Source: Halalkalibacterium halodurans (GTDB lineage: Bacteria > Bacillota > Bacilli > Bacillales > Bacillaceae_D). From it: DNA of 31,490 nucleotides. The translations under genes were made by a program, and so were the position numbers. The stretch is taken from the NCBI RefSeq assembly GCF_004376175.1, contig NZ_SNUY01000048.1:998-32487 (forward strand), given 5' to 3'. The notes beneath the pieces are model-generated. The model saw only the letters and a program-made list of their open reading frames with translations, was not told the DNA's origin and did no database searches. This document shows positions 1 through 28,061 of this stretch, in pieces (positions within the stretch are counted from its first letter, which is position 1; every line of letters starts with the position of its first letter).

Positions 1-1412
1 CACTAGCGTTGCATAAAAGAAGATACTTAAAATCTGATTATTCTGTTATTTGTTCATTCTAGTAAATGAGCTAAAAAGACAACACCAAGGGAAAGGTGGC
101 ACTGTCCATTTGGTAAAATTATACAATTACACTTGGGCGACAACGACTTTTTCTCTTTTACGGAATCCCGCTAGGAACAATGTAGCTAAGCCAAACTCTT
201 GCCGGGCGCCATATGGTCCTCTTTAACCATCGAGTAATTTGTAAAAGTGTTTGCTTACTTTTGGTTTCGAGTTGGATAAGAACATTGAGACAATACGTGA
301 TGAGCGCTAAAAACAGTTGATTGTGCACCGCTTCTTCGCTATAACCAAAGAAAGTTTTGATTTTCACGTGTTGTTTTAGCCATTTGAAGAAGAGCTCGAT
401 GGCCCATCTTGAGCGGTATAGATCGCCAATTTCATCGGCAGTTAAGTCGAAACGGTTGGTAATCAAACGTAAAAGCTGTCCTTTCGAATCAACTGTTTCA
501 ATGATTCGAAACACATTGTCACATCTCTTTTGAGTGGTACCGATGTAAGCCATTTTGTTTGAAGTTACCGAGCTATCTTCTGGAAGATCAAAGGTTTCAA
601 TCTCCCGAATAACTGCATTTTTCTTCAGTCTAGACAGAAAAAAGACTCCATCATCTGTGTAGCGATCAAATCGTTCATAATCGACATATCCACGGTCAAA
701 CACGTACATGGCGTCTTTATCATCAACAAGAATTTCAAGTTGGTTACGATCGTGCTCGGCAGCATTTGTAATAATGGCTTTATCAGGATAGACCAGTTCC
801 TGATCCACGTAAACTAAACGGAGATGAAGCTTAACACCAGCTTTTGACTTCCGAAAATGAGCCCACTGACAACGAGTAAGGTTAAGTGGCATCGTACTAG
901 AATCGATGATTTTAATAGGGTTCATCCTTTTTCGTTTGTCTGTTTTCAGATGAATGAGACGCACAAGTTCAAGGAAAATGGTCGATAAAAACTCTGGATC
1001 CATCGATTTATTTTTACGAGATAACTGAGATACACTAATCGATTTAAATCCAAGTTCTTTCTGCAAACCTTCATCCGCTAGTGCAGTATTTAGATCATGA
1101 AGGCTTTCCATCTGATTCAAATGGGCATAGAGAAAAAGTTTTGTAAATGAAAGTGTTTTTAGCTTCTTCGTATACTTATCAAGATGATATTTTTCAACTT
1201 GTTCATTAAAAAGTTTCATATTTATGGGTGCAACCCATTTACCAAATGAAGAAAATCGTGTATTCTTGTCCATAGCTGAGATCCTTTACGTTGGATTTGG
1301 ACAGGAACCACCTGTACTTCCATTGTAAAGGATTTTTTTATGGCTAAAACGATTAATAATTGAAGATTCAAAGGATTTTAAATCTTCAATTATTATTAAT
1401 GCAACACTAGTG
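1..1412 (-). mobile_element. IS4-family insertion sequence, copy A (both terminal inverted repeats present)
   Basis: CACTAGCGTTGCA at 1-13 and TGCAACACTAGTG at 1400-1412 are inverted repeats (12/13 match). They bracket one DDE transposase ORF. The 13-bp terminus is the same as in the IS at 16915-18486. The left flank is outside the window, so no target-site duplication can be scored. Confidence 0.85.
158..1273 (-). CDS. IS4-family DDE transposase (371 aa)
   Basis: Full-length ORF with RBS AAAGGA upstream. Motifs: IIDSST (D), VFDRGY (D) and YRSRWAIELFFKWLKQ, which fits the Y-x2-R-x3-E-x6-K signature of IS4/IS5-type transposases. Clearly a paralogue of the 17092-18321 transposase. Confidence 0.9.
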   Translation of the reverse strand: MDKNTRFSSFGKWVAPINMKLFNEQVEKYHLDKYTKKLKTLSFTKLFLYAHLNQMESLHDLNTALADEGLQKELGFKSISVSQLSRKNKSMDPEFLSTIFLELVRLIHLKTDKRKRMNPIKIIDSSTMPLNLTRCQWAHFRKSKAGVKLHLRLVYVDQELVYPDKAIITNAAEHDRNQLEILVDDKDAMYVFDRGYVDYERFDRYTDDGVFFLSRLKKNAVIREIETFDLPEDSSVTSNKMAYIGTTQKRCDNVFRIIETVDSKGQLLRLITNRFDLTADEIGDLYRSRWAIELFFKWLKQHVKIKTFFGYSEEAVHNQLFLALITYCLNVLIQLETKSKQTLLQITRWLKRTIWRPARVWLSYIVPSGIP

Positions 1413-1550
1413 AAATACAATATAACATTTACAAAAGGGGCATCAACCCAAACAGTTGATACCGCTAAAAAGTTTGTATCCATGTATGGTAGGCAAGAAT
1501 TAAGAGATGTTGCTAAACTGCATTTTAAGACCACAGATAAAATTATTTGA
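1413..1550 (+). pseudogene. Possible 3' remnant (45 codons plus stop) of a gene truncated by IS copy A
   Basis: The frame is open from the IS boundary to TGA at 1548-1550 (KYNITFTKGASTQTVDTAKKFVSMYGRQELRDVAKLHFKTTDKII) in very AT-rich DNA, where stop codons are frequent. I do not recognise a family. Confidence 0.25.
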
Positions 1551-1673
1551 TTATTAAGGATTCATGGGGGTCCGTTTGTTCTTAAATACGATAGATTGCT
1601 AGACGTAATATTCTTTTATTATGGTATATTAGATTATAGTTTAAATGTTGGATTCTTCTGGGGGGAAGGGACT

Positions 1674-2765
1674 ATGAGTAAAAAAAATATTTTTAAAGGG
1701 TTGCATCTCAATAGAAATATGTTGCTTCAATGGATTAATGAGTTTTCAGAGTTAAAGTTTTCCTCGTTTACATGTTCAGAACTCGAGCTTGTTGGAGGAA
1801 ATCAATACAGATGTACCATAGTTGGTGATGGTAAAGAGCTATTGGTTGACTTTTACTTTAATAAGGATGATAAAACTACAATACAACCTAAGGTTGGTCA
1901 AAACCAAGATACCAGCATGGAATTGGCAACCTATATCCTAGGGAAACTTGAATATTCGTATTCCGATATTAAGAGTAGATCTTACTCAGTGCATCCATTA
2001 CCAGAAGATGAACTTGACTTGATAATTGAATACCTTGGAGAATTGAAAGGTGTTAAAAAAGTAAATGTATCTCGGAATGATACTAACAGATACTCCTTGT
2101 ATCAATTTAAGAGTGAAATTGGTGACAAAATAACACTGACATATTATGATAACAAGAGATTACAGATACAGGGGAAACCGTTCTTTTTATACCAAGAAGT
2201 CACCTGTTTGCTTTCTGCTTACTTTCCTTTTGAAGATGTTATAAAAAACCAGTCAGAGTTCTTTAGTGTCGAAATTAGTCCTACCGAAATTAGAGATGAA
2301 ATGAAGGAAATGTTACCTTCTGCATATAATTATATAAATGAAGAGCTTAAGAAGGTATTATCAGCCTCTTTGGCACTGCAAAAAATAGATATAGAATTAG
2401 AAGATTACTCATCCTTTGTGTTTCCTGCTTTAAAAACACTTGAAGGTTATCTTAAGCAAATTTTCGCTGAAAAAGGAATTTTAATAAAAAAAGGTGGGTT
2501 TGGTAAATATTTTGGGTATAATAGTATATTAAAGAAATATAAATATCTTCAGGAGCCCGAAATTGACAGTATTGTAACAATTGATGTGATTGAAACATTA
2601 TATAATTATGTACATAAACATCGTCATACAATATTTCATGCGGAAGCAATTGCCTCTGCGACTAGAATTATTGAAACCAAACAAAACGCTGAATTAATTA
2701 TTGAACAAGTAATATCTTTAATTGAAACTACCCATGAAAAATTGAACAATCCTGTATCGAGTTGA
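1674..2765 (+). CDS. rnlA: RnlA/LsoA-like type II toxin (RNase LS family, HEPN-type endoribonuclease), 363 aa from ATG 1674
   Basis: ORF 1596-2765. The likely start is ATG 1674, preceded by GGGGGGAAGGG. It resembles E. coli RnlA (357 aa, recalled from memory) along its length: LLVDFYFNKDDKTTIQ, RLQIQGKP, DYSSFVFPALKTLEGYLK, GGFGKYFG. The HEPN R-x4-H motif RHTIFH lies at 2622-2639. Confidence 0.8.
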   Translation: MSKKNIFKGLHLNRNMLLQWINEFSELKFSSFTCSELELVGGNQYRCTIVGDGKELLVDFYFNKDDKTTIQPKVGQNQDTSMELATYILGKLEYSYSDIKSRSYSVHPLPEDELDLIIEYLGELKGVKKVNVSRNDTNRYSLYQFKSEIGDKITLTYYDNKRLQIQGKPFFLYQEVTCLLSAYFPFEDVIKNQSEFFSVEISPTEIRDEMKEMLPSAYNYINEELKKVLSASLALQKIDIELEDYSSFVFPALKTLEGYLKQIFAEKGILIKKGGFGKYFGYNSILKKYKYLQEPEIDSIVTIDVIETLYNYVHKHRHTIFHAEAIASATRIIETKQNAELIIEQVISLIETTHEKLNNPVSS

Positions 2766-2794
2766 TTTAATCCTTTTTAGGGATAAAGGTGATA

Positions 2795-3154
2795 ATGATG
2801 AAGAATTATGAAATTTATAAACTTAATAATGAATACCCTTATATCGTATTTTCTACTTCCTACATAAATCCTTTAGAGGATATTGAAAAAATTGAAGAGG
2901 AAATGGAATCCGAATTCCGGGGGAAAGTGTTGTTTGATCTTCTCTTGTCTAATGGATTAACATCTAACAGGTTTTTAGAGGCTGAATTTGATGGTGGTAA
3001 GTTTCAATATACTTCAATTAAACCGGTAGGCAATCTAGATAATTTAATTAAAAAAGAGTCTATCACTTTTTACCGTGAAAACATTGACCTACTGCAAAAT
3101 AGTGTTTTACCTAACGCACATAAATTTCTAATCAAAAAAGGACTGTTGGTTTAG
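2795..3154 (+). CDS. rnlB: RnlB/LsoB-like antitoxin (119 aa from ATG 2795; the ORF track starts at GTG 2789)
   Basis: It lies 29 nt downstream of the toxin gene on the same strand, with RBS AAAGGTGA. Its size matches RnlB (123 aa). The core GKVLFDLLLSNGLTSNRF resembles the RnlB core as I recall it (G-E-I-LFDLL-x-A-NG-x3-NRF). The toxin-first order matches rnlAB. Confidence 0.7.
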   Translation: MMKNYEIYKLNNEYPYIVFSTSYINPLEDIEKIEEEMESEFRGKVLFDLLLSNGLTSNRFLEAEFDGGKFQYTSIKPVGNLDNLIKKESITFYRENIDLLQNSVLPNAHKFLIKKGLLV

Positions 3155-3331
3155 AACTCATAAAAACTAGCATAGGCGAGCTTTCTTTGTGTAAGGTATG
3201 TTCATAAACCGAGGTTATCTATGGTTTTGTGACACGGGGGATCAGACCCTCCTACTCAATTTGACCACATTCTGACCACGAAACATATATAATCGTATAT
3301 TATTTAATTTGCTTTTTCGTAAATGAAAAGT

Positions 3332-3361
3332 GGCTAAACCTTCACTTACCAAGGTTTAGCC
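3332..3361. terminator. Perfect 11-bp stem hairpin (GGCTAAACCTT / AAGGTTTAGCC, 8-nt loop), possible terminator of the rnlAB-like operon
   Basis: The inverted repeat is seen directly. On the plus strand the T-rich tract follows only after about 5 nt. On the minus strand ACTTTTCATTT follows the stem. The function is uncertain. Confidence 0.35.
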
Positions 3362-3387
3362 TATCCGTGTTTATTTATATTAACTGT

Positions 3388-3457
3388 CGTAATGAAAGAA
3401 CGTAAGAAATACGGTCTTAAAGCTGCTCGTCGTGCACCTCAGTTCTCAAAGCGTTAA
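3388..3457 (+). pseudogene. rpsI: Orphan 3' end of rpsI (ribosomal protein S9, last 21 codons plus stop)
   Basis: 3392-3457 translates to [21 protein letters not shown]. The B. subtilis S9 C-terminus is ...[26 protein letters not shown]. No S9 coding sequence lies upstream (3155-3387). Confidence 0.85.
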
Positions 3458-3473
3458 TATCAATGGTTTACAG

Positions 3474-3508
3474 AACCCTCTGCTTTCCAACCCGGCAGAG
3501 GGTTTTTT
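3474..3508 (+). terminator. Rho-independent terminator (native rpsI terminator)
   Basis: Stem CCCTCTGC (3476-3483) pairs with GCAGAGGG (3495-3502) and is followed by TTTTTT (3503-3508). It lies 17 nt after the rpsI stop codon. Confidence 0.85.
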
Positions 3509-3509
3509 A

Positions 3510-3911
3510 ATGTGGCTCTACAATAAAGGATTCTCGTTAAATGTTGGGGCATATGCGTCTGAAATTATCCGTGCCGCGATTTTGTCAATTCCAAAAGGGC
3601 AATGGGAGGCGGCGTATTCGATCGGTATGAGCTATCCACAGGCATTAAAGCATATCGTGTTGCCGCAAGCCTCTCGTGTCTCGATTCCGCCCTTGTCCAA
3701 TTCTTTTATTAGCCTTGTGAAAGATACGTCATTGGCGTCGTTGATCCTGGCGGCAGAAATGTTCCGGAGAGCCCAGGAAATCGCAGCAACGAACTATGAA
3801 TTTTTACTATTGTATGCGCAAGCGGGCGCCATTTACTGGATTATCTGCTTTGGTCTCTCGTTAGTACAGGGACGAATCGAAAACCGTTTAGATCGCTATG
3901 TCGCGAAATAA
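3510..3911 (+). pseudogene. Amino-acid ABC transporter permease (His/Glu/Gln/Arg family), 5'-truncated: only the C-terminal ~125 residues remain
   Basis: The sequence [45 protein letters not shown] carries the EAA loop and is followed by the last TM segments. The ~90-100 N-terminal residues typical of the family are absent. Family similarity begins at about 3530, right after the rpsI terminator. The 3432 ORF start runs through the rpsI remnant and terminator and is an artefact. Confidence 0.8.
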
Positions 3912-3926
3912 GAAGGAGCTCATAAA

Positions 3927-4670
3927 ATGATTGCCGTACAGAGCTTATATAAAAAATTTGGAGAAGTCGAAGTACTCAAAGGCCTTGACTTAACCGTTGA
4001 ACGTGGAAAAGTAGTTGTCGTCATTGGTCCTTCAGGATCTGGGAAAACGACCCTCCTGCGCTGTTTAAATATTTTAGAGACACCGACTTCAGGATCGGTC
4101 CAGATTGAAAATCAAACGTTGGATTTCAGCGGAAAAGTATCTTCCAAAGAGATCGCTAATTTTCGCAGATTGACAGGGATGGTGTTTCAAAGCTATAACC
4201 TTTTTCCCCATATGACGGTACTTCAAAACGTCATGGAAGGCCCGATGACCGTAAAGAAAGAGGCAAAAGCACAGGTTGAGGAGAAGTCGAAGCAGCTCCT
4301 TGCAAAGGTGGGTCTTGCCGATAAGGAAACTGTATACCCATTTCAACTGTCAGGGGGCCAGCAGCAACGAGTAGGAATCGCTCGGGCGCTCGCCATGGAG
4401 CCGAAAGTGATGCTGTTTGATGAGCCAACGTCTGCCCTTGACCCAGAGCTTGTTGGCGAGGTTTTACGAGTCATGAAGGAGTTGGCCGAAGAAGGAATGA
4501 CCATGATCGTTGTCACCCATGAAATGAGGTTTGCTCAAGAAGTGGCGGACGAAGTCATTTTTATGGACGACGGCAAAATTGTGGAGCGAGGCACCCCAGA
4601 CGACATCTTCAAGACACCAAAAGTAGAGCGGACGAAGCAGTTTCTTCGTCTCATTCATAGTAGAGTGTAA
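3927..4670 (+). CDS. Amino-acid ABC transporter ATP-binding protein (GlnQ/TcyC-like), 247 aa
   Basis: Walker [10 protein letters not shown], signature [15 protein letters not shown], Walker [13 protein letters not shown]-loop VTHEM. RBS is AAGGAG. Confidence 0.95.
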
Positions 4671-4690
4671 CGAAATAAGACGAAGAAGGA

Positions 4691-4725
4691 CCCCTGCTGC
4701 AGAACGAGTGTCGCAGGGGTTTTTG
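4691..4725 (+). terminator. Rho-independent terminator after the ABC ATPase gene
   Basis: CCCCTGC (4691-4697) pairs with GCAGGGG (4713-4719) and is followed by TTTTT. Confidence 0.8.
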
Positions 4726-4787
4726 ATCGTTTTCATGATAAAATGAAACCACTGTTTATAATGACAGCATAGAGGAGTGGCGAACGA

Positions 4788-5027
4788 ATGAAGCAAATGA
4801 CGTTTAACCATATGAAAATCAATTACAATCCAGCAATGCATGTTTTTACGAATGATGATACTAAGGGAATCGTGTTTGTCTCGAAGGGCCTTGATGAAAT
4901 TCACGCTGTAGTAGAAGTGAGTGAAAATAATAATTTCAAAATACATCTAAGGTGGAATGTGAATTTTTTCGTAAGTGATAGTGAAATCACCGTTGATTTA
5001 AATTACTGTGAAGAAGAGGACGAATAA
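4788..5027 (+). CDS. Hypothetical protein, 79 aa
   Basis: ORF with RBS AGAGGAG 8-9 nt upstream. No recognisable motif. Confidence 0.5.
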   Translation: MKQMTFNHMKINYNPAMHVFTNDDTKGIVFVSKGLDEIHAVVEVSENNNFKIHLRWNVNFFVSDSEITVDLNYCEEEDE

Positions 5028-5165
5028 TTGTCAAACATGAGAGAGCCCGGCTGTAGATGAGTACAGTAGAGGGCTGATGCAGCGAAATTAAAGACGTAGG
5101 GCAGAGTCTACTAATACTAAACATACATTAGGAACTTTTTAAAGTACAGCCCAAGTGCCTTCCAA

Positions 5166-5321
5166 ATGGATTTATTTGAATCAATCGTTGGGATTTTATT
5201 TTGGCTACTAATCATTTATATGATTTCCAGAGTTTTTGTCCATTTTGATCATCAAAAGAAAGAAATGAAATCCCTTCATGAGAAGGTGGATCAGTTGCTT
5301 GAAGAGAGGAAAGATCAGTAA
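5166..5321 (+). CDS. Possible small membrane protein, 51 aa (MDLFESIVGILFWLLIIYMISRVF...)
   Basis: The ORF is below the track cutoff. It has one hydrophobic segment followed by a charged tail. No clear Shine-Dalgarno sequence. Confidence 0.25.
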   Translation: MDLFESIVGILFWLLIIYMISRVFVHFDHQKKEMKSLHEKVDQLLEERKDQ

Positions 5322-5589
5322 ATGATAGCGGCTTTCAGGTGTTTAGCATTATATCAATTAAGACTTCAATACACTGGTTGAATGTTTGGTATTGCTTCAT
5401 CAAGTTTGACGTTCATGTCGATTCTAGGTACTTTTCTTGTTAAACCGATAGAATCTCAACAGCACCCCAGCCATCGCTTCAAATGGTATGGATTCTGTGT
5501 TACCCATGGAAAAGACCAAGTGTTTGCAGGCTGATAGGAACCCGTGGTACCGTTAGAAGTGAATGGATAGGGGAAGGGGCGATACAGCC

Positions 5590-5769
5590 ATGAGTACAGC
5601 AAATTTGGAGGAGCGTCTTGCTACGTTAAAAGCGGATTATATCAAGTATCAGGGCGATTTGGAGAAGGTTGAATCCACTGGTGGCGATGGGGGGCCCATT
5701 GAGCGCCAACTTTATCAGCTTGAAGAAGAAATCCAGAAAATTCGCGAAGAAATCCGCAGCAACGGATAA
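5590..5769 (+). CDS. Small coiled-coil protein, 59 aa from ATG 5590 (MSTANLEERLATLKADYIKYQGDLEK...)
   Basis: ORF 5563-5769. The internal ATG at 5590 is preceded by GGGGAAGGGG. The sequence shows heptad-like charged repeats. Confidence 0.55.
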   Translation: MSTANLEERLATLKADYIKYQGDLEKVESTGGDGGPIERQLYQLEEEIQKIREEIRSNG

Positions 5770-5809
5770 GGGAAGGCATGGCCCTTAAAGTGAAAACTCC
5801 TTACGAACG

Positions 5810-5849
5810 GCACCTCATTGACAATTAAACCAATGGAGGTGCTTTTTTT
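5810..5849. terminator. Hairpin plus T-run between convergent genes
   Basis: GCACCTC (5810-5816) pairs with GAGGTGC (5836-5842) and is followed by TTTTTTT. The loop is large, about 19 nt. Confidence 0.5.
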
Positions 5850-5863
5850 GTTAGAAAAACATG

Positions 5864-6589
5864 CTACCCCTGCAATCTATACAATTCACGGGCCATCGCT
5901 TCAAGAATGTACACGACGGGCACTTGGGTCGTGATGTTTGCTTTCTCAAAAAACTCTTCCGAGACATAATACGAAAGATTGACATCTGCTACTTTTGCTA
6001 TTGTGGAAAATTTATTGTTGGTGATGCTAATGATTTTGCTACCTTCTTGTTTTAGCTGATTCACTTGGGTGATGGTAAAGTGGGTTTCCCCTGAGACAGA
6101 TAGGGCGATGGTGACGCTGTTCTGCCGGAGCTTGGAGTGAATCGGGTAAGAAAAGTCTTTAATGTACATCGATAATTTCCCTAAGGCGGAAAAATACCTT
6201 GCGCCATATTCAGCTAAGATTCCAGAACTGCCGATTCCGATGAAGATGACGTTTTCCGCATCTGCCACAAGGGCAGCGGCCTCGGAAATTCTTTCTTCCA
6301 AGTCCCCTTTAAACGCCCGTTCGAAAAATTCCGCAATCGCATGCTGGGAGCTTTTAATCGGAGCTTTCTTCTCTTTTTCTAGGTGCATTTTTAGCTTCAC
6401 TTTAAATTCGGAAAACCCGTCGCAATCCACTTTTCGGCAAAAACGCAAAATCGTCGCTGTCGATACGTGGGTTTCGTCAGCAAGCTCACGAATCCGCATG
6501 TACGCTACTTTTTCTGCGTGTTGGCAAATGTAGTTGTAGATCGACATTTCTAACTCATTAAAGGACGCAATGACCTCACTTGAAAACAT
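5864..6589 (-). CDS. RpiR/MurR-family transcriptional regulator (HTH plus SIS domain), 241 aa
   Basis: The N-terminal HTH is MRIRELADETHVSTATILRFCRKV. SIS motifs are IFIGIGSSG and LSVSGET. RBS is GAAGGGG. It is divergent from the glucosidase genes. Confidence 0.9.
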   Translation of the reverse strand: MFSSEVIASFNELEMSIYNYICQHAEKVAYMRIRELADETHVSTATILRFCRKVDCDGFSEFKVKLKMHLEKEKKAPIKSSQHAIAEFFERAFKGDLEERISEAAALVADAENVIFIGIGSSGILAEYGARYFSALGKLSMYIKDFSYPIHSKLRQNSVTIALSVSGETHFTITQVNQLKQEGSKIISITNNKFSTIAKVADVNLSYYVSEEFFEKANITTQVPVVYILEAMARELYRLQG

Positions 6590-6946: not shown

Positions 6947-8392
<1,446 letters not shown>

Positions 8393-8430
8393 CGGTATAA
8401 AAACATTTAAGCTCTCGGAGGTGTAAGGCA

Positions 8431-9759
8431 ATGACAGAAGGTATTAAGATTGCGACGATTGGTGGGGGTTCAAGCTACACGCCTGAACTTGTTGAAGGAT
8501 TTATTAAACGCTATGATGAGCTGCCGGTTCGTGAACTATGGCTCGTCGATATTGAGGAAGGCAAAGAAAAAATGGAGATCGTCGGGAACCTTGCGAAGCG
8601 CATGGTTCAAAAAGCGGGTCTACCGATTGACATTCATCTAACCCTTGATCGAAGAGAAGCGTTAAAAGGAGCCGATTTCGTTACGACGCAATTTCGAGTG
8701 GGCTTGCTGGATGCGCGGGCAAAGGATGAGCGAATTCCATTAAAGTATGGCGTGCTCGGTCAAGAGACGAACGGGCCAGGCGGCTTGTTTAAAGGGCTGC
8801 GCACGATTCCGGTTATTCTTGACATTTGCCGTGACATGGAGGAGCTGTGTCCGGATGCATGGCTTATCAACTTTACGAATCCAGCGGGTATGGTGACAGA
8901 AGCAGTCTTACGTTATGCCAATATTAAAAAAGTCGTCGGGCTATGCAATGTTCCCATCGGGATCGAAATGGGTGTCGCCAAACTGCTTGATGTGGATCAC
9001 TCGCGCATTCGCATTGACTTTGCCGGCTTGAACCATATGGTGTACGGACTCGATGTTTATTTAGACGGTGTCAGTGTAAAAGACAAAGTGATTGAGATGA
9101 TCACAGATCCGAACAATAGTAGTTTCGTCAAAAACATCGACGGGCTCGGCTGGGAGCCATCCTTTATCAAAGCGCTCGGCGTCCTCACATGCCCATACCA
9201 TATGTATTATTACAAGTCACGGGAAATGGTCGAAAAGGATTTGAAAAAAGCTGAAGAGGAAGGCACACGGGCTGAAGTCGTCCAACGCTTAGAAAAAGAA
9301 CTGTTTGAGCTGTATAAGGACCCGAATCTGGACATCAAGCCACCGCAGCTCGAAGAACGAGGCGGAGCCTATTACTCTGATGCCGCCGTCCGCTTAATCC
9401 ATTCGATTTATACAGATCGACGAGATATTCAACCCGTGAATACGATGAATCGTGGGGCAATCGCAAGCATCCCGAGCGACTCAGCGGTGGAAGTGAGTTG
9501 TGTCATCACAAAGGATGGACCGAAGCCGATCGCGATGGGAGATTTGCCAGTCCCGGTCCGCGGACTCGTTCAGCAAATTAAGTCGTTTGAACGGGTAGCA
9601 GCAGAAGCGGCCGTTACTGGCGATTATGATCTTACGGTTCTGGCGATGACGATCAATCCATTAAGTCCATCGGACACGATCGCGAAACAAATCGTTGATG
9701 ACATGCTTGAGGCACACAAGGAGCACTTGCCGCAATTTTTCAACGAAGTTCAAGCGTAA
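8431..9759 (+). CDS. licH: GH4 6-phospho-beta-glucosidase (LicH/CelF type, NAD and Mn dependent), 442 aa
   Basis: The N-terminal KIATIGGGSSYTPELVEGFIKRYDELPVRELWLVDI matches B. subtilis LicH closely as I recall it, and the length is the same. RBS is GGAGGTG. Confidence 0.92.
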   Translation: MTEGIKIATIGGGSSYTPELVEGFIKRYDELPVRELWLVDIEEGKEKMEIVGNLAKRMVQKAGLPIDIHLTLDRREALKGADFVTTQFRVGLLDARAKDERIPLKYGVLGQETNGPGGLFKGLRTIPVILDICRDMEELCPDAWLINFTNPAGMVTEAVLRYANIKKVVGLCNVPIGIEMGVAKLLDVDHSRIRIDFAGLNHMVYGLDVYLDGVSVKDKVIEMITDPNNSSFVKNIDGLGWEPSFIKALGVLTCPYHMYYYKSREMVEKDLKKAEEEGTRAEVVQRLEKELFELYKDPNLDIKPPQLEERGGAYYSDAAVRLIHSIYTDRRDIQPVNTMNRGAIASIPSDSAVEVSCVITKDGPKPIAMGDLPVPVRGLVQQIKSFERVAAEAAVTGDYDLTVLAMTINPLSPSDTIAKQIVDDMLEAHKEHLPQFFNEVQA

Positions 9760-9767
9760 TAAAGGAG

Positions 9768-9794
9768 AGGGGCTGTTCATGTTGAGCAGCCCCT
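9768..9794. terminator. Bidirectional hairpin terminator
   Basis: AGGGGCTG (9768-9775) pairs with CAGCCCCT (9787-9794), followed by T-rich sequence on the plus strand. Confidence 0.7.
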
Positions 9795-9961
9795 GTTTCT
9801 CGTATGAAAGAGATGTCCAGCTCCAAGAGCTCTCCGTAATTCTTTTAACTCCGTGGCCTTCCCCCCTTATTCATTTCGCTCTACTTTTAGGACAAAATCG
9901 AGCAAATGATGATCCTCGATCGGAATTTTCGCCTTTACATCGAACGTCCCATTGTCAATGA

Positions 9962-11053
9962 TCAGCAAATGAGCGTCGGCTCCTTTCTCGCGTAAATAAA
10001 TCCATTTACGACATGGTCATAATAAAGGATCTCGTAGATAGCGTCCTTTTGAATATAGTCTTTTTCCAAGGCTTGAAACGTAGGGTTTTCGCCAAATGTA
10101 AGCAGACCGAGGGTAACCCCGTCCTCCTCACTCTGGACAAGATATAAGGCTTTGTTTTCTTCGAGAAAAACAGTTCCTTCGCCCTCAAAGTAATACATAT
10201 CTTGATGTGGGAGGTGGTGAAACGGATAGGTGGCGTGATACCGGAACTCACGATCGTAAACAAACAACGTTCCCTCCTCACTTAAAATATAAGCATAATC
10301 ATCATCCGCATAAAGGGGGTAGAGATCTTGTCCCCCTAGTTGAAAATCTTCGTAGGTGACGTTCTCCTTCGCCATATCGACAATCCCAATCCCTGCGTTC
10401 TCATAGTGCCCTTCTTGATTGAAACGACCGCTAAGGCCGTATATGATCCTTTCCTGAAACCCTAACAGTGGTGCACTTTTGGGTACAAAATCTGGCTCTG
10501 TTTCAAAGCTTTGTTCCGTTGTTGCATTGGAAAGAGAAACACTAAACGTGTCAGAATCGATATTTTGCTCACTCGTTTTGTGGGAGACGGCTGTATCAAA
10601 TAACACCTCTTCCCCGTAGTGCTCAAGGTTTTGCACGCCAACGTTAGATGAAAAATAATCGAGCTCAACTTTTTCAAAGGAAAGGCGCTGTAAGTCAAAC
10701 GTATAATAGTAATTATCAGACGTGGCCTCCCCAAATAACGAAACGTACAGGGTATCCATATCCGTTGGCTTTTGGTGGATAAACATACGACGAAACTTGT
10801 CATCAACAATTTCAAACTCCTCAACGATCTCCCCATTCTCGTTTATAGCTTTCACAATAGTGGCGTCTTGGTTGACTCGGATGTCAGCCGGATAGAATAG
10901 TAAATAGTCGCTCTCCTCATTTGTTAAAAGATCGAGATGAAACTGCTCGATTCCTTCGACTTGAACTCTTTCCAGTTGGACTTTCGTCTTTGCCACCGCA
11001 ATGATCACGATAAGTAAAAGCCCGCTTATTAATAGTAATCGATACCACTTCAT
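9962..11053 (-). CDS. Membrane-anchored or secreted protein of unknown function, 363 aa (the C-terminus may be frameshifted)
   Basis: N-terminal TM/signal anchor MKWYRLLLISGLLLIVIIAVA. RBS is AGGGAG. I do not recognise a family. An alternative frame stays open for 49 codons to 9867 past the annotated stop. Confidence 0.7.
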   Translation of the reverse strand: MKWYRLLLISGLLLIVIIAVAKTKVQLERVQVEGIEQFHLDLLTNEESDYLLFYPADIRVNQDATIVKAINENGEIVEEFEIVDDKFRRMFIHQKPTDMDTLYVSLFGEATSDNYYYTFDLQRLSFEKVELDYFSSNVGVQNLEHYGEEVLFDTAVSHKTSEQNIDSDTFSVSLSNATTEQSFETEPDFVPKSAPLLGFQERIIYGLSGRFNQEGHYENAGIGIVDMAKENVTYEDFQLGGQDLYPLYADDDYAYILSEEGTLFVYDREFRYHATYPFHHLPHQDMYYFEGEGTVFLEENKALYLVQSEEDGVTLGLLTFGENPTFQALEKDYIQKDAIYEILYYDHVVNGFIYARKEPTLIC

Positions 11054-11288
11054 GCGATTGGTTCTCCCTGACGTGGGCTTACATTACAAAATGGATGGAC
11101 ATGGTTCACAACATTCTCTCCTAGTATTGTTTTTAATTTATATTACTATAAAACGAAGGGGAATGGGAAAAAGTTCTAGAATACTAGAAAGTAGCTTCAA
11201 AAGGAGGAAAAATCGTGATGATCCCAAACAATGCATCGAAGCTTTATCGGAAAGATAGGATCGTGAAGGACCCCAAAAGGAGATCAAT

Positions 11289-11528
11289 ATGGAATTATTA
11301 TTGCAACTAAGCCTATTTGTCCTCTTGATCATCATCATAAATTTTGTCATGAAACAATTTGGTAAAAGGGGTTCCCTGTTCGTTTTGGTTATACTTTTTG
11401 CTAGTTTAATCACTTTAATAATAGGGATCAATGGTGTTGCGGATCGTTCTTTTTGGTTGATCATTTTGTTCGCTTCAATTCCTCTATCTATAGGAATTAC
11501 ACAACTCATAAAGAAGCAGAAGGACTAA
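11289..11528 (+). CDS. Small integral membrane protein, 79 aa
   Basis: RBS AAAGGAG 7 nt upstream. Three hydrophobic segments. Confidence 0.6.
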   Translation: MELLLQLSLFVLLIIIINFVMKQFGKRGSLFVLVILFASLITLIIGINGVADRSFWLIILFASIPLSIGITQLIKKQKD

Positions 11529-11595
11529 AAAATCTCTATTGTTTTACATTTCTTTTTGTTGATGAAAGCTAATAGAGTAAATAAAATAAACAACA

Positions 11596-11633
11596 GCCCT
11601 CATCACCTCCTCACAGGCAATGAGGGCTTTTCT
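11596..11633. terminator. Bidirectional terminator between convergent genes
   Basis: GCCCTCAT (11596-11603) pairs with ATGAGGGC (11620-11627), followed by TTTT on the plus strand. The minus strand is also T-rich after the stem. Confidence 0.7.
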
Positions 11634-11635
11634 CG

Positions 11636-12982
11636 TTAATTCTTGGCTGCCTGTCTGTGAAAGACTGCTTCACTTGCAGCTAGGACTTTGTTTCGTAAGC
11701 CGTCCAGGTCATCGAATAACAGCTTGCCGTGTCGTTTAACGGGTCGGCCTGCGATGAAGACTGAATCTACGTTTTCAGGCCTCGCGCTTTGGACAACCGC
11801 ACCAACAGGCTCATGATTGAGCGGGAACAGGTTGAACGACGCTGGGTTGATCAAGAGAAGGTCTGCCTCTTTCCCTACGTCAAGGGTTCCGATTTTATCG
11901 TCTAGCTTGAGGGCTTTTGCACCGTTCAGTGTGGCGAACGTTAACACGTCGTTCGTTGTCATCTTCAGCTGCTCCGGCATTTCTCCGCGGTCGAGTCGTT
12001 GTTCATTTTGCCACGCTCGTTCGGCTTGAAGGGCGAACTTCATCTGAGCGAACATATCACCTGCGGTAGCAACGACAACATCGACGCCGAGGGTGACTAG
12101 GCCACGGTGCTTATGGAGGTGACCGGTGGCTGGATAGCCGTGCCCCATCATCATTTCCACTTCAGGGGTGACGGATAGGGAGGCGCCGCTTTCCGCAATG
12201 TATTCATACTCATGTGGTTGGATTCGGTTCACATGGACGAGGTTTAAGTCCGAATCGAGCAAGCCGGCATCACGCATACGGGTGATGGAACGGTCATGAG
12301 GGCCCCACGTACCGAATCCGATGTGCATCGACGCGATGGCATCAAGTTCTCTCGCTAGCTGGATATCATCAAGGGTGACCTCCCATGAGCTGAATTCCGG
12401 TCCGCGAATCGCTAACGCCATGGTCAGCAGCTGATCGTCCGACTGAAAATATTCTTTTTTTACCCGCTTTGCGTCTTTCGGGTGTCTCACTTCACTGTCA
12501 CGGGACCAATACGCCTCATACCCTGGGGTGCCATGGGCGAAGACGGCACGAATGCCAGCTGCTTGAAGTCCTTTGATGGACGCGTCGGCGTGCTCAGGGG
12601 TCTCGAGCATGGACCAATCGAGCACCGTGGTCACCCCTGCATCAATCGCTTCGAGAGCGCCCCAAAGGTTGGCAATATAGGAGTCTTCAGGGGTTAGCAT
12701 TGATCCTAGATTACCGTAATATAATTTGTCTAAATAGGTGAGCAAGGTCCAGTCTGTGCCGATGTGACGGAGTAGTGACTCCCATACGTGCCGATGCGTA
12801 TCGACAAAGCCTGGCATGACGATTTTACCCTCGGCGTCGATGATTTCTGTATCGACTTCTGGTTCGATGTTTGGGCGGATGTCCCGAATCCACTTGCCTT
12901 CGATCAGGATGTCTTTTGCTTGTGGTTTGTGGTTTCCTTTCATGTCTAACACAAGTCCGTTTTTAATTAATTGCTGTTTCAT
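11636..12982 (-). CDS. Amidohydrolase-superfamily metallohydrolase (TRZ/ATZ / deaminase-like), 448 aa from ATG 12982
   Basis: Motifs: MPGFVDTHRHVWES (HxH metal motif), internal His residues and the C-terminal GTLDVGKEADL. RBS GGGGAGGA precedes the ATG at 12982. The track start at 13006 is an upstream extension. Confidence 0.85.
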   Translation of the reverse strand: MKQQLIKNGLVLDMKGNHKPQAKDILIEGKWIRDIRPNIEPEVDTEIIDAEGKIVMPGFVDTHRHVWESLLRHIGTDWTLLTYLDKLYYGNLGSMLTPEDSYIANLWGALEAIDAGVTTVLDWSMLETPEHADASIKGLQAAGIRAVFAHGTPGYEAYWSRDSEVRHPKDAKRVKKEYFQSDDQLLTMALAIRGPEFSSWEVTLDDIQLARELDAIASMHIGFGTWGPHDRSITRMRDAGLLDSDLNLVHVNRIQPHEYEYIAESGASLSVTPEVEMMMGHGYPATGHLHKHRGLVTLGVDVVVATAGDMFAQMKFALQAERAWQNEQRLDRGEMPEQLKMTTNDVLTFATLNGAKALKLDDKIGTLDVGKEADLLLINPASFNLFPLNHEPVGAVVQSARPENVDSVFIAGRPVKRHGKLLFDDLDGLRNKVLAASEAVFHRQAAKN

Positions 12983-16626: not shown

Positions 16627-16914
16627 ATGGGGGATTTGTGCAGAAAAGTGCCAGATCATGCCGTACAAATCATTAAAGAGCGATGTCGTGTAGTTAACCT
16701 ATGTCACTATATTACACCGACATCCACATTTTTTCGCAATGACAATCGGGATCAAGAGATTTGTGAAATCGTCCGAAAAGCAGCTGCCATTTGGTGTGGT
16801 GCAGGCATTGAGTTTAATGTAAATCGTATCGAGGAACTGCAACACGTGCTAACAGAGCCGCCATTCAATGAGTTAGTAGCTGAAGATTTCCCTTGTGAGG
16901 ATCATATTGGAGAT
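16627..16914 (+). pseudogene. Metzincin-like zinc metalloprotease gene, 5' fragment (interrupted by an IS)
   Basis: The ORF ends in a stop codon created inside the IS terminus (…EDHIGD|H*). Removing the IS and one TSD copy joins it in frame to 18496 onward (…EDHIGDRIPHLLATRPG…). Confidence 0.8.
16906..16914. repeat. Target-site duplication, left copy (ATTGGAGAT)
   Basis: An identical 9-mer lies directly outside both IS ends (16906-16914 and 18487-18495). Confidence 0.9.
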
Positions 16915-18486
16915 CACTAGCGTTGCACAAAAAAGTGAAGACAAAGTCAAGGGTACAGAAATGGAATATTATTGATAATTATTCCATTTTATAACTTTAC
17001 GAAATATTCAGTTTTATTTTTTTCTTGGTAATCAAGTCAAAAGGATAAGGGGGGTCTGTTTGAAGGTAGTCCTTATCCAATTTTTTACAAATTAGTAGAT
17101 AGGGTCATAACTTAGGTCGTTTAAATGTTGGGTATCACCATCTTCAAATTGTGCTAAGGTTTCGTTGAAAATCCGGTCATGATCAAGTCGCCTTCGACCC
17201 TTTGATGATCGCTTGGGCTTTTTAAATAGCTCCTTTAGAAAAACAGAGAAGCTTCTCCACCAATATTCTTTTATAAACTCAAGCATCTCAAGGAGAGTTC
17301 CTTGATAACGCACTTTCTTCTTCATTAATAAAGTTAAACAGAAAGTAATCATGGCGATATAGACTTGGTTGTAAACGGCATTGGCGCTCTTTCCATAACA
17401 TTTTTTCAGAACCATATGCTGCTTCATCCATTTGAAGAACAACTCGATTTGCCAGCGGCTTCGATAAAGATCACTGATTTCCTCTGCGCTCATCTTTGCA
17501 TCATTTATGATAATCGAGATCTTGTTTCCTTGACTGTCCAGCGTTTCAATCAATCGTAGAGGGTATTTCATTTTTCCTAGCTTGACCACCGCCTCACGAA
17601 GAATATCGGAAGATGGGTCCACAGGCAGTTCTTCAATAACCTTGATGACCGTGTTATCTTTTATTCGAGTACAAAACCGAACGTTATTTTTACAGTAATC
17701 GTCAAACTTATCGAAATCGAAATATCCCCGATCAAATACGTGAAGGGCATCCTTTTCGATGACCATCAAGGCATCCAGTTGTGTGGAATCTGCCCGCCTG
17801 GCAGGGGTGATGATGATCTTATCCGGGGAAATCTCCCCTTCATGAATAACGACACGGGTATGTATTTTCACTCCCGCTTTTGTATTTCGGAAATGAGCCC
17901 ATCGATACTGGCTAAGACAAAAAGAGATGGTAGTAGAATCAATGAGATGGATTTTGCCTAATAAAGCATTTCCCTTTTCCTTCCCGAATTCCCGGTGGAT
18001 CTGTTGGACTAAATGATGAAGGATGGATTCAAAAATCTCTGGTGGCAAATCAGAAAGTTTACGGGATAATTGGGATTTACTGATGCTTTTTAATCCAAGT
18101 TCTTTTTGTAATTTTTTCTTATGCCGCACTTTAAAACTAATTTCCTTTAGACTTGATAACTGTTTCAATTGAGCATAAATAAAGAGTTTGATAAAGGTGA
18201 GGCTATCTAGTTTTTTAACATATTTATCCACTTGCATTTGATCAATGATTTTAGAAATGACTTTCATGTCTGTCGGTTGAATGTATTCCTTAAAAACCGT
18301 TTTTGTGTTATTCTTGTCCATAGGTTTACTCCTTATAATTAGGATATGGACAGGACTTCGTACCTTCTGTCATCTAATTATAAGGATTTTTTTATGAAGT
18401 TGAAGACTAGTATTTACCATAAATTCAATAAAATTGAATTTAATTACACCTTGACAAATCTTTTTTTATTTAATGCAACGCTAGTG
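16915..18486 (-). mobile_element. IS4-family insertion sequence, copy B (1572 bp), inserted into the metalloprotease-like gene
   Basis: Perfect 13-bp inverted repeats: CACTAGCGTTGCA (16915-16927) and TGCAACGCTAGTG (18474-18486). It carries a single transposase ORF and is flanked by the 9-bp direct repeat ATTGGAGAT. Confidence 0.92.
17092..18321 (-). CDS. IS4-family DDE transposase (409 aa)
   Basis: Motifs: HLIDSTT, HVFDRGYFDF and YRSRWQIELFFKWMKQ (YREK signature). RBS is AAGGAG. It is a paralogue of the copy A transposase, not identical to it. Confidence 0.92.
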   Translation of the reverse strand: MDKNNTKTVFKEYIQPTDMKVISKIIDQMQVDKYVKKLDSLTFIKLFIYAQLKQLSSLKEISFKVRHKKKLQKELGLKSISKSQLSRKLSDLPPEIFESILHHLVQQIHREFGKEKGNALLGKIHLIDSTTISFCLSQYRWAHFRNTKAGVKIHTRVVIHEGEISPDKIIITPARRADSTQLDALMVIEKDALHVFDRGYFDFDKFDDYCKNNVRFCTRIKDNTVIKVIEELPVDPSSDILREAVVKLGKMKYPLRLIETLDSQGNKISIIINDAKMSAEEISDLYRSRWQIELFFKWMKQHMVLKKCYGKSANAVYNQVYIAMITFCLTLLMKKKVRYQGTLLEMLEFIKEYWWRSFSVFLKELFKKPKRSSKGRRRLDHDRIFNETLAQFEDGDTQHLNDLSYDPIY

Positions 18487-18495
18487 ATTGGAGAT
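18487..18495. repeat. Target-site duplication, right copy (ATTGGAGAT)
   Basis: See 16906-16914. Confidence 0.9.
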
Positions 18496-19367
18496 CGGAT
18501 TCCTCATTTGTTGGCAACACGTCCAGGTAGTACAGACACGACAATTGCGGTTTATTGGATTGGCGGTGAAACGTTCCAAACGGATGGACACGGTGTCCAA
18601 GTAACTGGGTGTCATAACTTCAGCTTTTCAACTACTGACTCCATCCCAAGGCACTCAATTATTCTTACGGACTTAGCGAATTACCAAGTGTTAGCTCATG
18701 AGCTAGGGCATGCTTTATTTGTACATCACCCGGTGTGTTTAACAACGATGATCCGAGTCCAAATGCAGACCCCAATAACCGCAAGCATAATAGCGATTCC
18801 AATAATGTCATGTTTCCCAATGCAGGGACACAAACGACAGTTGAGCAGCGGCTATTGGCGAGAAAAAGCAAACTGGTGGTTGAAGATTTTTGTGATGTTA
18901 AATTTGTTCCTGAATTTCCTAAGAAGTTTGAAGTGGAAATTTTGAGCATTGGGGTCCATGAAGTGGACGATGGTTTATTTGATTCTGATATTGAAGTGCG
19001 TTTTAACTTCAAGATCAACGATACCACTCTTTCTTGGGAACATCATCAGATTGAACCTTCCGCTGTTCCTTACCACATTGGTGTTAGGACGAACGTATTA
19101 ATTCACACTCCTGATGATGAGATTTCATTAGAAATAACTGGTGTTGAATTTGATGTTAATCAGAACGACCCGTTGCCGTCATTTTCAAGAACATTTGGAC
19201 AGGCCGACCAGTGGTGGGGTACAAATGTTCCCAATCCTCCTGGTTTCCATAGTACCTTGATTTTAGAAAACGATGAGATAAAGTGTGAAATCTTTTTCAA
19301 GATTACTGCGGTTCCTTCGGAAGAAAAGCTGATCCCTGGTGTTTTCCAACAATCAATAATTACCTAG
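18487..19367 (+). pseudogene. Metzincin-like metalloprotease gene, 3' part (HELGHALFVHH motif), with an additional frameshift near 18729-18733
   Basis: Frame A gives …LANYQVLAHELGHALFVHHP and then runs into nonsense. Frame B (18735-19367) continues with VFNNDDPSPNADPNNRKHNSDSNNVMFPNAG… and a ~210-aa C-terminal region. A 1-nt deficit in the CCCGG run joins them as …HHPGVFNNDD…. Confidence 0.75.
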
Positions 19368-19668: not shown

Positions 19669-22747
<3,079 letters not shown>

Positions 22748-24212: not shown

Positions 24213-24650
24213 ATGACGGTTATTACAACATTTACACAAAAACGTCGGGAGAAACAGTGGAAGTTTGAACGGAAAATGCTTCGTGAATTGACATTGCAAC
24301 AAATAAAAAAAGACATTCAGACTCATTTTCAAGACATTATCCCGTTTCATTTTTTAACCCACCCATTTTTGATGGACCCTTGTACCGATATGGCCATTGA
24401 TGCCTATTTACTTGGCGCCGAGTTTGGCCGTTTTGGCTACTATGGGGAGCCAGCAGAGAAAGCGAAAGCGCGATGCGAAGAAGAATTGTCTGACCTGTCC
24501 CACTATGTTTTCGATTTACTTCAAGGTTGGTATACAAACTCCGAGTTTATTCTCGATTCTCTCCACGTTGCTTCACAAGCCTTTGTCGATCATTGGTGGC
24601 GTAAAGGATTTGAAGAGGGGACAAAACGGTACAAACTCCGCCTTCATTAA
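24213..24650 (+). CDS. ybaK: YbaK-like conserved hypothetical protein (DUF2521 type), 145 aa
   Basis: Its size and its position immediately upstream of cwlD match B. subtilis ybaK. RBS is GAGGAG. The assignment rests mainly on synteny. Confidence 0.6.
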   Translation: MTVITTFTQKRREKQWKFERKMLRELTLQQIKKDIQTHFQDIIPFHFLTHPFLMDPCTDMAIDAYLLGAEFGRFGYYGEPAEKAKARCEEELSDLSHYVFDLLQGWYTNSEFILDSLHVASQAFVDHWWRKGFEEGTKRYKLRLH

Positions 24651-24712
24651 GAAAATCACTACATATTTTCCCACTTGTCCAAATATATATAGGAACGATA
24701 GGACGAGGGGGA

Positions 24713-25435
24713 ATGATCATGATTAAGTGGTTAAAAGGTGGAGTGTTTGCACTAGGGCTTGTTGCACTCCTTTTCATTATCCAATATCAGTTTATTAGCA
24801 ATGATTCATCTTCCACATGGAATCTTCCGTTGTCTGGAAAGGTTATTATCCTTGATCCGGGACACGGAGGGATCGATGGCGGGGCGACGTCTAGGGCAGG
24901 TGCCTTGGAAAAAGACATTACGCTCGCTGTTAGCTTGGAACTTCGCGACTATCTCCAGGAAGCAGGGGCCCTCGTGTTAATGACACGAGAGGAAGATCGT
25001 GACTTAGCGGATGCGACGACAGCGAAGGTTCGCCAGCGAAAGGTTCAAGATTTAAAGCGGCGAGTTGAAATTGTCAATGGTTCTGGAGCTGATATGTTTG
25101 TCAGCATCCATTTGAATGCGATTGCTTCTCCTCGTTGGAGCGGGGCGCAAACGTTTTACAATCGAGCGATTCCGGAGAACGAACCTTTAGCCCGGTTTGT
25201 CCAGGATCAGCTGAAACGTAATTTAGAAAATACGAGTCGTTATGCAAAGCCAATTAATAACGTTTTTTTGTTAAAACATGCTGAAATTCCAGGTTTGCTA
25301 GTTGAAGCAGGTTTTTTATCCAATCCTTCCGAAGCTGAATTGCTTGAGACAGAAGACTATCAACAAAAAGTTGCAGCATCCATCTACCAAGGGATCATGC
25401 GCTATTACACAAATGAAGATGCGCCTGAGCAATAA
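24713..25435 (+). CDS. cwlD: Germination-specific N-acetylmuramoyl-L-alanine amidase CwlD, 240 aa
   Basis: N-terminal TM segment. Amidase_3 motifs are ILDPGHGGIDGGA, FVSIHLNA and LVEAGFLSN. It sits in the conserved cwlD-salA-gerD-kbaA-pdaB context. Confidence 0.92.
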   Translation: MIMIKWLKGGVFALGLVALLFIIQYQFISNDSSSTWNLPLSGKVIILDPGHGGIDGGATSRAGALEKDITLAVSLELRDYLQEAGALVLMTREEDRDLADATTAKVRQRKVQDLKRRVEIVNGSGADMFVSIHLNAIASPRWSGAQTFYNRAIPENEPLARFVQDQLKRNLENTSRYAKPINNVFLLKHAEIPGLLVEAGFLSNPSEAELLETEDYQQKVAASIYQGIMRYYTNEDAPEQ

Positions 25436-25501
25436 ACGAGTGCAAACGGATTCACGAACAGGACTAGGCGTATGCTATACTAAGCGTATACTGGAAAAAG
25501 G

Positions 25502-26566: not shown

Positions 26567-26588
26567 ACCGTTTGTAACAAAGAGTAGA

Positions 26589-26624
26589 AAGAGCCTCAAA
26601 GAAGTAAAAATGAGGCTCTTTCTT
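26589..26624. terminator. Hairpin terminator between convergent salA and gerD
   Basis: AAGAGCCTCA (26589-26598) pairs with TGAGGCTCTT (26611-26620) and is followed by TCTT. Confidence 0.75.
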
Positions 26625-26667
26625 ACGTTAAATATTAAGTGACGAGACTGATTGGGCGGTGGGGGCT

Positions 26668-27294: not shown

Positions 27295-27439
27295 CACTTC
27301 TGCTCCTTTCACTCATTTTGTCATTAATTTGAGACATTTTCTTGAACTTTATGCATGGTCTAGGGACAACGACTGGCTTTTTCGCTGAGCGATTGATACA
27401 ATCAATGACAGCAATGTATGTAGATGTGGAGGAACGTAC

Positions 27440-28024: not shown

Positions 28025-28028
28025 AAAA

Positions 28029-28054
28029 GTCGAGCGATGTCGCTCGGCTTTTTG
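28029..28054. terminator. Bidirectional terminator between kbaA and pdaB
   Basis: GTCGAGCG pairs with CGCTCGGC (one G-U pair). The stem is flanked by AAAAAA upstream and TTTTT downstream. Confidence 0.75.
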
Positions 28055-28061
28055 TTTTGAC

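Follow-up and report, generated by a model that had tools for sequence, protein, structure and literature searches.

An RnlA/RnlB-family toxin-antitoxin pair in Halalkalibacterium halodurans, very probably the remnant of an RNase HIII cassette cut by an insertion sequence

Background

RnlA-RnlB of Escherichia coli K-12 (RNase LS) and LsoA-LsoB of plasmid pOSAK1 from E. coli O157:H7 are the closest described relatives of the toxin-antitoxin pair reported here, and both are demonstrated anti-T4 systems. The roles of residues R318, H323, E258 and R255 in E. coli RnlA have been described (PMC8266594). In E. coli, RNase HI binds the NRD of RnlA, stimulates RnlA and is needed for RnlB at its native level to neutralise RnlA, and depletion of RNase HI inactivates RnlA (PMC5308261). 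Naka et al. draw a comparison between this role of RNase H and systems controlled by a SecB-like chaperone. In this study we analysed a stretch of 31,490 nucleotides (nt) from Halalkalibacterium halodurans (contig NZ_SNUY01000048.1, positions 998 to 32,487), referred to below as the window, which carries a homologous rnlA-rnlB pair next to the 3' end of an RNase HIII gene and a complete insertion sequence (IS).

Members of the family in Bacillaceae have been noticed before. Anantharaman et al. (2013, PMC3710099), in a survey of HEPN proteins, cited an RNase LS protein of Geobacillus whose N-terminal domain is TBP-like and noted that RNase H can be fused to RNase LS HEPN proteins. The exact RnlA protein of the window is on record in NCBI and UniRef as E2L07_14485 of H. 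halodurans, where its UniRef name is type II toxin-antitoxin RnlA-family toxin. Our search found 51 homologues, and the same family name is already attached to homologues with 50-64% identity from B. cereus, B. safensis, Priestia, Caldibacillus, Parageobacillus and others. The locus is thus an uncharacterised further homologue of the known RnlA/RnlB family, named previously by automated annotation.

Results and discussion

Identification of the RnlA and RnlB proteins

An initial annotation, made by reading the DNA, had proposed two co-oriented open reading frames (ORFs) at 1674-2765 and 2795-3154 as an RnlA/RnlB-like pair. Both were present on the + strand, separated by 29 nt, and the toxin gene came first as in rnlAB and lsoAB. 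The features of the locus are listed in Table 1.

Table 1. Features of the rnlA-rnlB locus and its borders in the window
Feature	Position	Strand	Evidence
Complete IS4-family insertion sequence; window begins at its left end	1-1412	-	Pfam/NCBIfam transposase, terminal repeats
IS4-family transposase	158-1273	-	Pfam DDE_Tnp_1, DUF4372; NCBIfam transpos_IS4_1 (NF033592), E 7e-73
3' remnant of RNase HIII gene, 45 codons + stop, 138 nt	1413-1550	+	TIGR00716, phmmer, L012 alignment
Leader 5' of rnlA, 123 nt: weak hairpin 1558-1573, possible extended -10 TGGTATATT, Shine-Dalgarno GGGGGGAAGGG	1551-1673	+	Sequence reading
rnlA, 363-aa RnlA/LsoA-family HEPN endoribonuclease toxin	1674-2765	+	Pfam, PDB sequence matches, AlphaFold2/Foldseek
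Partner residues E257 and K254 of RnlA	2433-2444	+	Alignment to E. coli RnlA
HEPN RX4H motif RHTIFH (R317...H322), residues 317-322	2622-2639	+	Alignment to E. coli RnlA
rnlB, 119-aa RnlB-family antitoxin	2795-3154	+	Pfam, PDB, PHROG
AT-rich non-coding spacer, 232 nt, right edge of island remnant	3155-3386	.	L012 homology ends at 3143
Orphan rpsI 3' end, last ~21 codons + stop	3387-3457	+	92% identical to L012 rpsI end
Intrinsic terminator AACCCTCTGC...GCAGAGGGTT followed by T run	3474-3508	+	Sequence reading; terminator scan reports part

The larger protein passed the gathering scores of all four Pfam RnlA models, namely RnlA_toxin_N (E 1e-17), RnlA_toxin (1e-12), RnlA-toxin_DBD (3e-29) and HEPN_RnaseLS (4e-17). 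The matches to PF19417, PF15935, PF19034 and PF18869 together spanned residues 7-339 and, with the AlphaFold2 model, defined three domains, a TBP-like N-terminal domain, a TBP-like NRD and a HEPN DBD. Among proteins of solved structure the best sequence match was LsoA (5hy3, LsoA with T4 Dmd; E 2e-32 over residues 53-351), followed by E. coli RnlA (4i8o and the 6y2p series) at E 5e-21 and weaker. The AlphaFold2 model was built on 19 homologues and had a mean pLDDT of 83.6. When it was compared with the PDB by Foldseek, the top 10 chains were all RnlA or LsoA (E 1e-20 to 1e-12, TM ~0.6), while the next match had an E-value of 6e-3, and the full-length RnlA structures aligned to the model over ~360 columns.

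The sequence blocks that the initial annotation had compared with E. coli RnlA all reappeared in the HMMER alignment to 4i8o and 6y2p: VDFYFNKDDKTTIQ opposite VDIFYNGDGSTTIQ, RLQIQGKP opposite KLQIQGRP, DYSSFVFPALKTLEGYLK opposite DYCMLLYPELRTIEGVLK, GFGKYF opposite GFGTYF, and RHTIFH opposite RHSLFH, the last being indeed the HEPN R-x4-H motif. In this alignment R318, H323, E258 and R255 of E. coli RnlA stood opposite R317, H322, E257 and K254, and R317, H322 and E257 were invariant in 19 of 19 homologues. The smaller protein was likewise RnlB as had been supposed; it matched Pfam RnlB_antitoxin (PF15933, E 3e-24, model positions 2-93 of 94) above the gathering score, the PDB RnlB chain 6y2p_C (E 1e-6) and PHROG 22343 (E 2e-23). 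The NCBIfam scan matched no RnlA or RnlB model. A PADLOC scan of both proteins also gave no match, a negative without weight because the control, E. coli LsoA/LsoB, found no RnlA/LsoA-named model in PADLOC-DB v2 either; the family seems not to be represented in that library. Taken together, it is virtually certain that the two ORFs form an RnlA/RnlB-family type II toxin-antitoxin pair. E-values of 1e-17 to 1e-32, together with structural matches exclusively to RnlA/LsoA, ruled out chance resemblance and membership of another HEPN family.

Compared with RnlA-RnlB of E. coli K-12, the pair shares the three-domain toxin, the RX4H motif with its glutamate, the toxin-first order and an RnlB of ~120 amino acids (aa), with TM values of 0.59-0.61; it differs in that the toxins are ~21% identical in the structural alignment and K254 takes the place of R255. 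With LsoA-LsoB it shares gene order and a location on a mobile element, and the best sequence match lies there. LsoA-LsoB differs in being carried on a 3.3-kb plasmid without an RNase H gene and in having a known phage antidote, Dmd. To our knowledge, no Dmd-like antidote is known for Bacillaceae phages.

The start of rnlA at ATG 1674 agreed with the conserved N-terminus of the homologues, MSKK.NIFKGL (MSKKNIFKGL in the window), and was preceded by a Shine-Dalgarno sequence that is kept in relatives, the remaining leader being poorly conserved. The start of rnlB is ambiguous among GTG 2789, ATG 2795 and ATG 2798. Both genes were full length and had intact Shine-Dalgarno sequences; neither carried a frameshift or a premature stop, and the catalytic residues were unchanged in both. 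The ratio of nonsynonymous to synonymous substitution (dN/dS) against the closest relative found, L012, was 0.11 for rnlA and 0.15 for rnlB, in line with purifying selection; such pairwise values mostly record history before the IS insertion and do not discriminate among possible states of the pair.

Junction of an IS4-family element with an RNase HIII gene remnant

The DNA immediately left of the rnlA leader was found to be the 3' end of an RNase HIII gene. The short ORF 1410-1550 matched the TIGR00716 rnhC model at positions 245-284 of 284 (E 2e-4), and the remnant matched the RNase HIII of locus L002 by phmmer with an E-value of 2e-12 and aligned to the C-termini of 10 intact paralogues. 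In L012, whose RnlA is 85% identical to that of the window, the DNA was 83% identical to the window over 1413-3143. Position 1413 of the window aligned with position 5703 of L012, 138 nt before the stop codon of a 312-aa RNase HIII gene, and over L012 5703-5840 the remnant was 83% identical in nucleotides and 78% identical in amino acids.

The terminal inverted repeats of the IS are CACTAGCGTTGCA at 1-13 and CACTAGTGTTGCA, the reverse complement of 1400-1412. They were found by gapped local alignment, a repeat search with seed 8 having missed them. Since these repeats lie at 1-13 and 1400-1412 and homology to the cassette begins at 1413, the segment 1-1412 was taken as one complete IS4-family element cutting the RNase HIII gene. 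Position 1413, where the initial annotation had started its insert, is the exact junction of IS and cassette. The break in the RNase HIII gene falls after roughly codon 266. Beside rnlA the window has no intact gene for RNase HIII or RNase HI, the last 45 codons being all that is left, and no other RNase HIII-like ORF was found within the window. The RnlA/RnlB pair is therefore very probably what remains of a three-gene cassette that the IS has cut.

A second, related IS4-family element lies at 16913-18488, ~13.5 kb from the insert. It encodes a 409-aa transposase (17092-18321, - strand) and is bounded by this terminal repeat as well, ATCACTAGCGTTGCA. Its similarity to the element at 1-1412 is patchy, with 68-78% nucleotide identity in three short stretches.

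RNase H genes linked to rnlA among relatives

The arrangement of RNase H genes was tabulated for every locus fetched. The close group was defined by at least 50% RnlA identity and comprised 10 loci; 16 IMG/VR loci were added (Table 2).

Table 2. RNase H arrangements at rnlA loci
Arrangement	Loci	Group
RNase HIII directly upstream of rnlA	L002, L012, L015/16	>=50% RnlA identity
RNase HIII upstream, ~430-aa TPR/DUF7017 protein between	L001, L003, L013/14, L017, L019, L021	>=50% RnlA identity
Separate Cauli_VI + RNase HI gene upstream	L018 (Brevibacillus)	>=50% RnlA identity
RNase HIII downstream of rnlAB	L004	More distant
Separate RNase HI gene	L008	More distant
RNase HI fused to RnlA	L007, L009/10, L011, P0035/36/51	More distant
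No RNase H	L005, L006	More distant
RNase HI fused	8 loci	IMG/VR (n=16)
Separate RNase HI	1 locus (L022)	IMG/VR (n=16)
No RNase H	7 loci	IMG/VR (n=16)

An intact RNase H gene was present upstream in all 10 close-clade loci, encoding RNase HIII in nine and RNase HI in one. In L002 (Bacillus sp. BHET2, RnlA 64% identical) a gap of 70 nt separates the end of the 310-aa RNase HIII gene from rnlA. The RNase HIII proteins of the cassettes retain the DEDE residues and a TBP-like N-terminal domain and diverge from solved housekeeping RNase HIII (E 1e-23); one of them is labelled rnhC by PGAP. As read from these gene orders, the Bacillaceae cassette would normally be RNase HIII - (optional TPR protein) - RnlA - RnlB.

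Because adjacency is conserved despite changed gene order, fusion and exchange of RNase HIII for RNase HI, a functional partnership of RnlA with RNase H is indicated, and the linkage would agree with the genetics and biochemistry of the E. coli system. The E. coli pair depends on a host rnhA that is not linked to it; in the Bacillaceae clade RNase HIII is encoded beside rnlA, in the window in broken form. The link to RNase H is shared with the Cauli_VI and RNase H fusions of Anantharaman et al.; in contrast to those, RNase H in the clade of the window is a separate gene, of type HIII (HI in Brevibacillus), and not fused. No description of a stand-alone RNase HIII-RnlA-RnlB arrangement was found in the literature searched. 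The likeness to systems with an operon-encoded SecB-like chaperone is one of analogy alone, in that a third protein modulates the toxin-antitoxin interaction; the proteins are unrelated and the chaperone is not an RNase H.

The four-gene variant was seen in six relatives, with the TPR/DUF7017 gene at L001 4667-5953, L003 ~4650-5945, L013 3667-4959, L017 3677-4969, L019 3681-4964 and L021 3665-4945. The encoded protein gave weak matches to TPR-S 'sensor' repeats and, at its C-terminus, to an S1/CSD-like domain known from TOTE conflict systems. This protein, possibly a sensor module, is missing from the lineage of the window.

State of the pair and alternative explanations

Going by the homologous RnlAB and LsoAB of E. 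coli, RnlA would be a metal-independent HEPN endoribonuclease, active as a canonical HEPN dimer that unites the R317/H322 motifs. RnlB would bind the HEPN dimer and block access to the substrate groove, as may be expected from the E. coli complex (PMC8266594). When phage infection or another shut-off halts RnlB synthesis, the labile RnlB would decay, and the freed RnlA would degrade mRNA so that the infection is aborted. The RNase H of the cassette would act as a third component, in the way that host RNase HI of E. coli activates RnlA and recruits RnlB via the NRD, and we consider it most likely that the RNase H partner is the third functional component.

The explanation that we consider likely for the locus as a whole is an RnlAB pair from an IS-cut RNase HIII cassette within an island remnant. 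With the dedicated RNase HIII interrupted, we rate an attenuated or addiction-type remnant somewhat above a fully competent defence, and substitution in trans by the housekeeping RNase HIII is a serious alternative. The pair is intact, and we lean towards the view that it is still both toxic and neutralising; that it still protects against phage seems rather doubtful. A broader idea, put forward tentatively and at somewhat less than even confidence, is that RnlAB of Bacillota is obligately three-component and that the cassette RNase H, whether HIII, HI or fused, serves as a sensor or regulator swapped by non-orthologous displacement. On such a reading RNase H might couple activation of RnlA to RNA-DNA hybrids made by an infecting phage. 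If it were true, the window would represent a natural RNase H knock-out with toxin and antitoxin kept, tolerated only if RNase H activates the toxin and does not merely aid its silencing.

Several points weigh against the overall explanation of the locus. K254 replaces R255 of E. coli, a conservative change at a position that is K or R across the clade. On the far side of the IS the 5' portion of the RNase HIII gene may have been kept, but it would still be disrupted. A convincing promoter for rnlAB was not seen; over 1250-3560 the promoter scan counted 14 sites, compared with 10.5 +/- 3.4 for shuffled sequence, which is no enrichment. We found no experimental study of any Bacillaceae RnlAB member in the literature searched; to that extent the statement of the initial annotation that none had been characterised holds, although the branch had been cited in 2013 (Geobacillus) and named by NCBI. 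RnlAB from a lactococcal plasmid did not protect against the phages with which it was challenged (PMC11381338). Finally, two-gene RnlAB loci without a nearby RNase H were found (L005, L006 and 7 IMG/VR loci, Paraclostridium and Romboutsia among them), and since such loci exist and E. coli uses its host enzyme in trans, loss of RNase H need not disable the pair.

These RNase H-free loci also speak for a different explanation, namely a fully autonomous and competent two-gene abortive-infection system, in which RNase HIII is dispensable or replaced in trans by housekeeping RNase HIII/HII and the IS is without functional consequence. Such autonomy would fit the E. coli pair, which works with a chromosomal rnhA encoded elsewhere, as well as the full-length ORFs under purifying selection with their catalytic residues and the retained 123-nt leader with a strong Shine-Dalgarno sequence and possibly its own promoter. 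However, in the close clade the dedicated RNase H is exchanged in type and never lost, which suggests a specific requirement. The cassette RNase HIII is so divergent that the housekeeping enzyme may not substitute, and 1.4 kb of IS now stands between the pair and the promoter of the operon, which lies upstream of the RNase HIII gene. We regard the autonomous system as possible and on present evidence doubtful.

Whether rnlA is still transcribed bears on another alternative. A promoter may lie within 1551-1673, as judged from the leader sequence, and its possible extended -10 was not conserved in L012 or L002. The pair could then be a silent relic, untranscribed or with an RnlA no longer activatable since the IS insertion, and orphaned too recently for decay. 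The lack of excess promoter-like sites over shuffles, the inactivation of RnlA on RNase HI depletion in E. coli and the patchwork of rearrangements around the pair (the IS, the rpsI fragment and a 5'-truncated ABC permease gene at ~3530-3911) are consistent with a relic; the undamaged reading frames, catalytic residues and Shine-Dalgarno sequences argue against it, and we consider it quite unlikely.

The genomic setting of relatives raised the question of addiction. Members of the family are often carried by small mobilisable plasmids (95 plasmid records, most of them lsoAB plasmids of E. coli), and relatives occur on islands beside integrases (L005, L012) and on prophage-like IMG/VR contigs. 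Together with the inactivity of the lactococcal pair against phage, this would fit a main role in stabilising the carrier island or mobile element and not in phage defence. On the other side stand the proven anti-T4 activity of both E. coli pairs and the genes that adjoin the relatives, which include GmrSD, type I and type II restriction-modification genes, the HEPN protein AbiV and an nSTAND3 NTPase and are typical of defence islands. Addiction as the main role is in our judgement unlikely, and the two roles are not exclusive.

RnlB homologue in a phage genome

A search of 50,697 phage genomes gave no match for RnlA and a single one for RnlB, an orphan homologue of PHROG 22343 with 37% identity. 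It lies in Marinitoga camini virus 1 (KP836355.1 35289-35651; L020 3462-3824). No RnlA was found near it; its neighbours are a ParE-like toxin, a helix-turn-helix protein and a 152-aa protein, with an hhalign probability to RnlA of <1%. The phage protein could be a mimic of the antitoxin, directed against the RnlA of the host.

Right flank, composition and island context

The initial annotation had described the insert as visibly more AT-rich than the DNA to its right, and the composition check bore this out. The GC content was 0.320 over 1413-3386 and 0.447 over 3511-31490 (32.0% vs 44.7%), and the lowest value among 261 same-size windows in the remaining DNA was 0.371. The insert does lie between an IS on the left and an orphan rpsI fragment on the right, as had been noted; its description as IS-bounded had to be dropped, because the right boundary is the duplicated rpsI 3' end. 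A test for a composite transposon found an IS on the left side alone, and the nearest other IS4-like copy is the different element at 16913-18488.

In L012 the homologous island starts right after intact rplM-rpsI and contains integrase and group II intron reverse transcriptase/maturase fragments (3456-4708), the three-gene cassette and an nSTAND3 NTPase. The latter, of 1265 aa, is encoded directly downstream of rnlB in the region 8148-11945. In the window the genes that usually follow rpsI in Bacillus (DUF2521/ybaK, cwlD, ParA-like salA/mrp, gerD, kbaA and pdaB) were found at 24213-28823 in the same orientation. The island was probably integrated at the 3' end of rpsI, the orphan fragment being its right-hand att-type duplicate.

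The spacer between rnlB and the rpsI fragment contains a minus-strand hairpin (3332-3361) and, ~100 nt left of the rpsI fragment, the 28-nt motif TTGACCACATTCTGACCACGAAACATAT at 3261-3288. The window has one copy of this motif and L012 has two, at 3405-3427 just after rpsI and at 12043-12065 where a tyrosine-recombinase fragment loses homology; from these positions it may be an att or element-end sequence. A search for an integrase relic in 3155-3386 gave an 11-residue match alone, which coincided with the motif.

Right after the terminator of the rpsI fragment begins a 5'-truncated amino-acid ABC permease gene (3530-3911; BPD_transp_1 positions 60-183 of 184), followed by an intact ATPase gene (3927-4670), and this marks another rearrangement junction. 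Elsewhere in the window, a GH81 glucanase ORF (19678-22263) ends within CBM6 (profile positions 1-59), and an overlapping ORF (22238-22747) continues it (59-124) and adds CBM56. The split indicates a frameshift, from either a pseudogene or a sequencing error. The ORFs 9962-11053 (-), 11138-11509 (-) and 18735-19367 (+), of 363, 123 and 210 aa, had no Pfam match at E 1e-5.

Conclusions

Taken alone, the locus changes little, since it adds one more RnlAB homologue that had already been named automatically. The RNase HIII linkage and its natural disruption lend the finding a modest added interest. In E. coli it is a puzzle that RNase HI, an enzyme of replication, activates RnlA and yet is also required if RnlB is to restrain it. 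With RNase H encoded within the Bacillaceae operon, a three-component system could be reconstituted from one DNA fragment and dissected, and the IS-disrupted locus offers a natural comparison of the RnlAB pair with and without its RNase HIII partner. The locus could also serve as a first Gram-positive or alkaliphile RnlAB model for phage triggers and antidotes.

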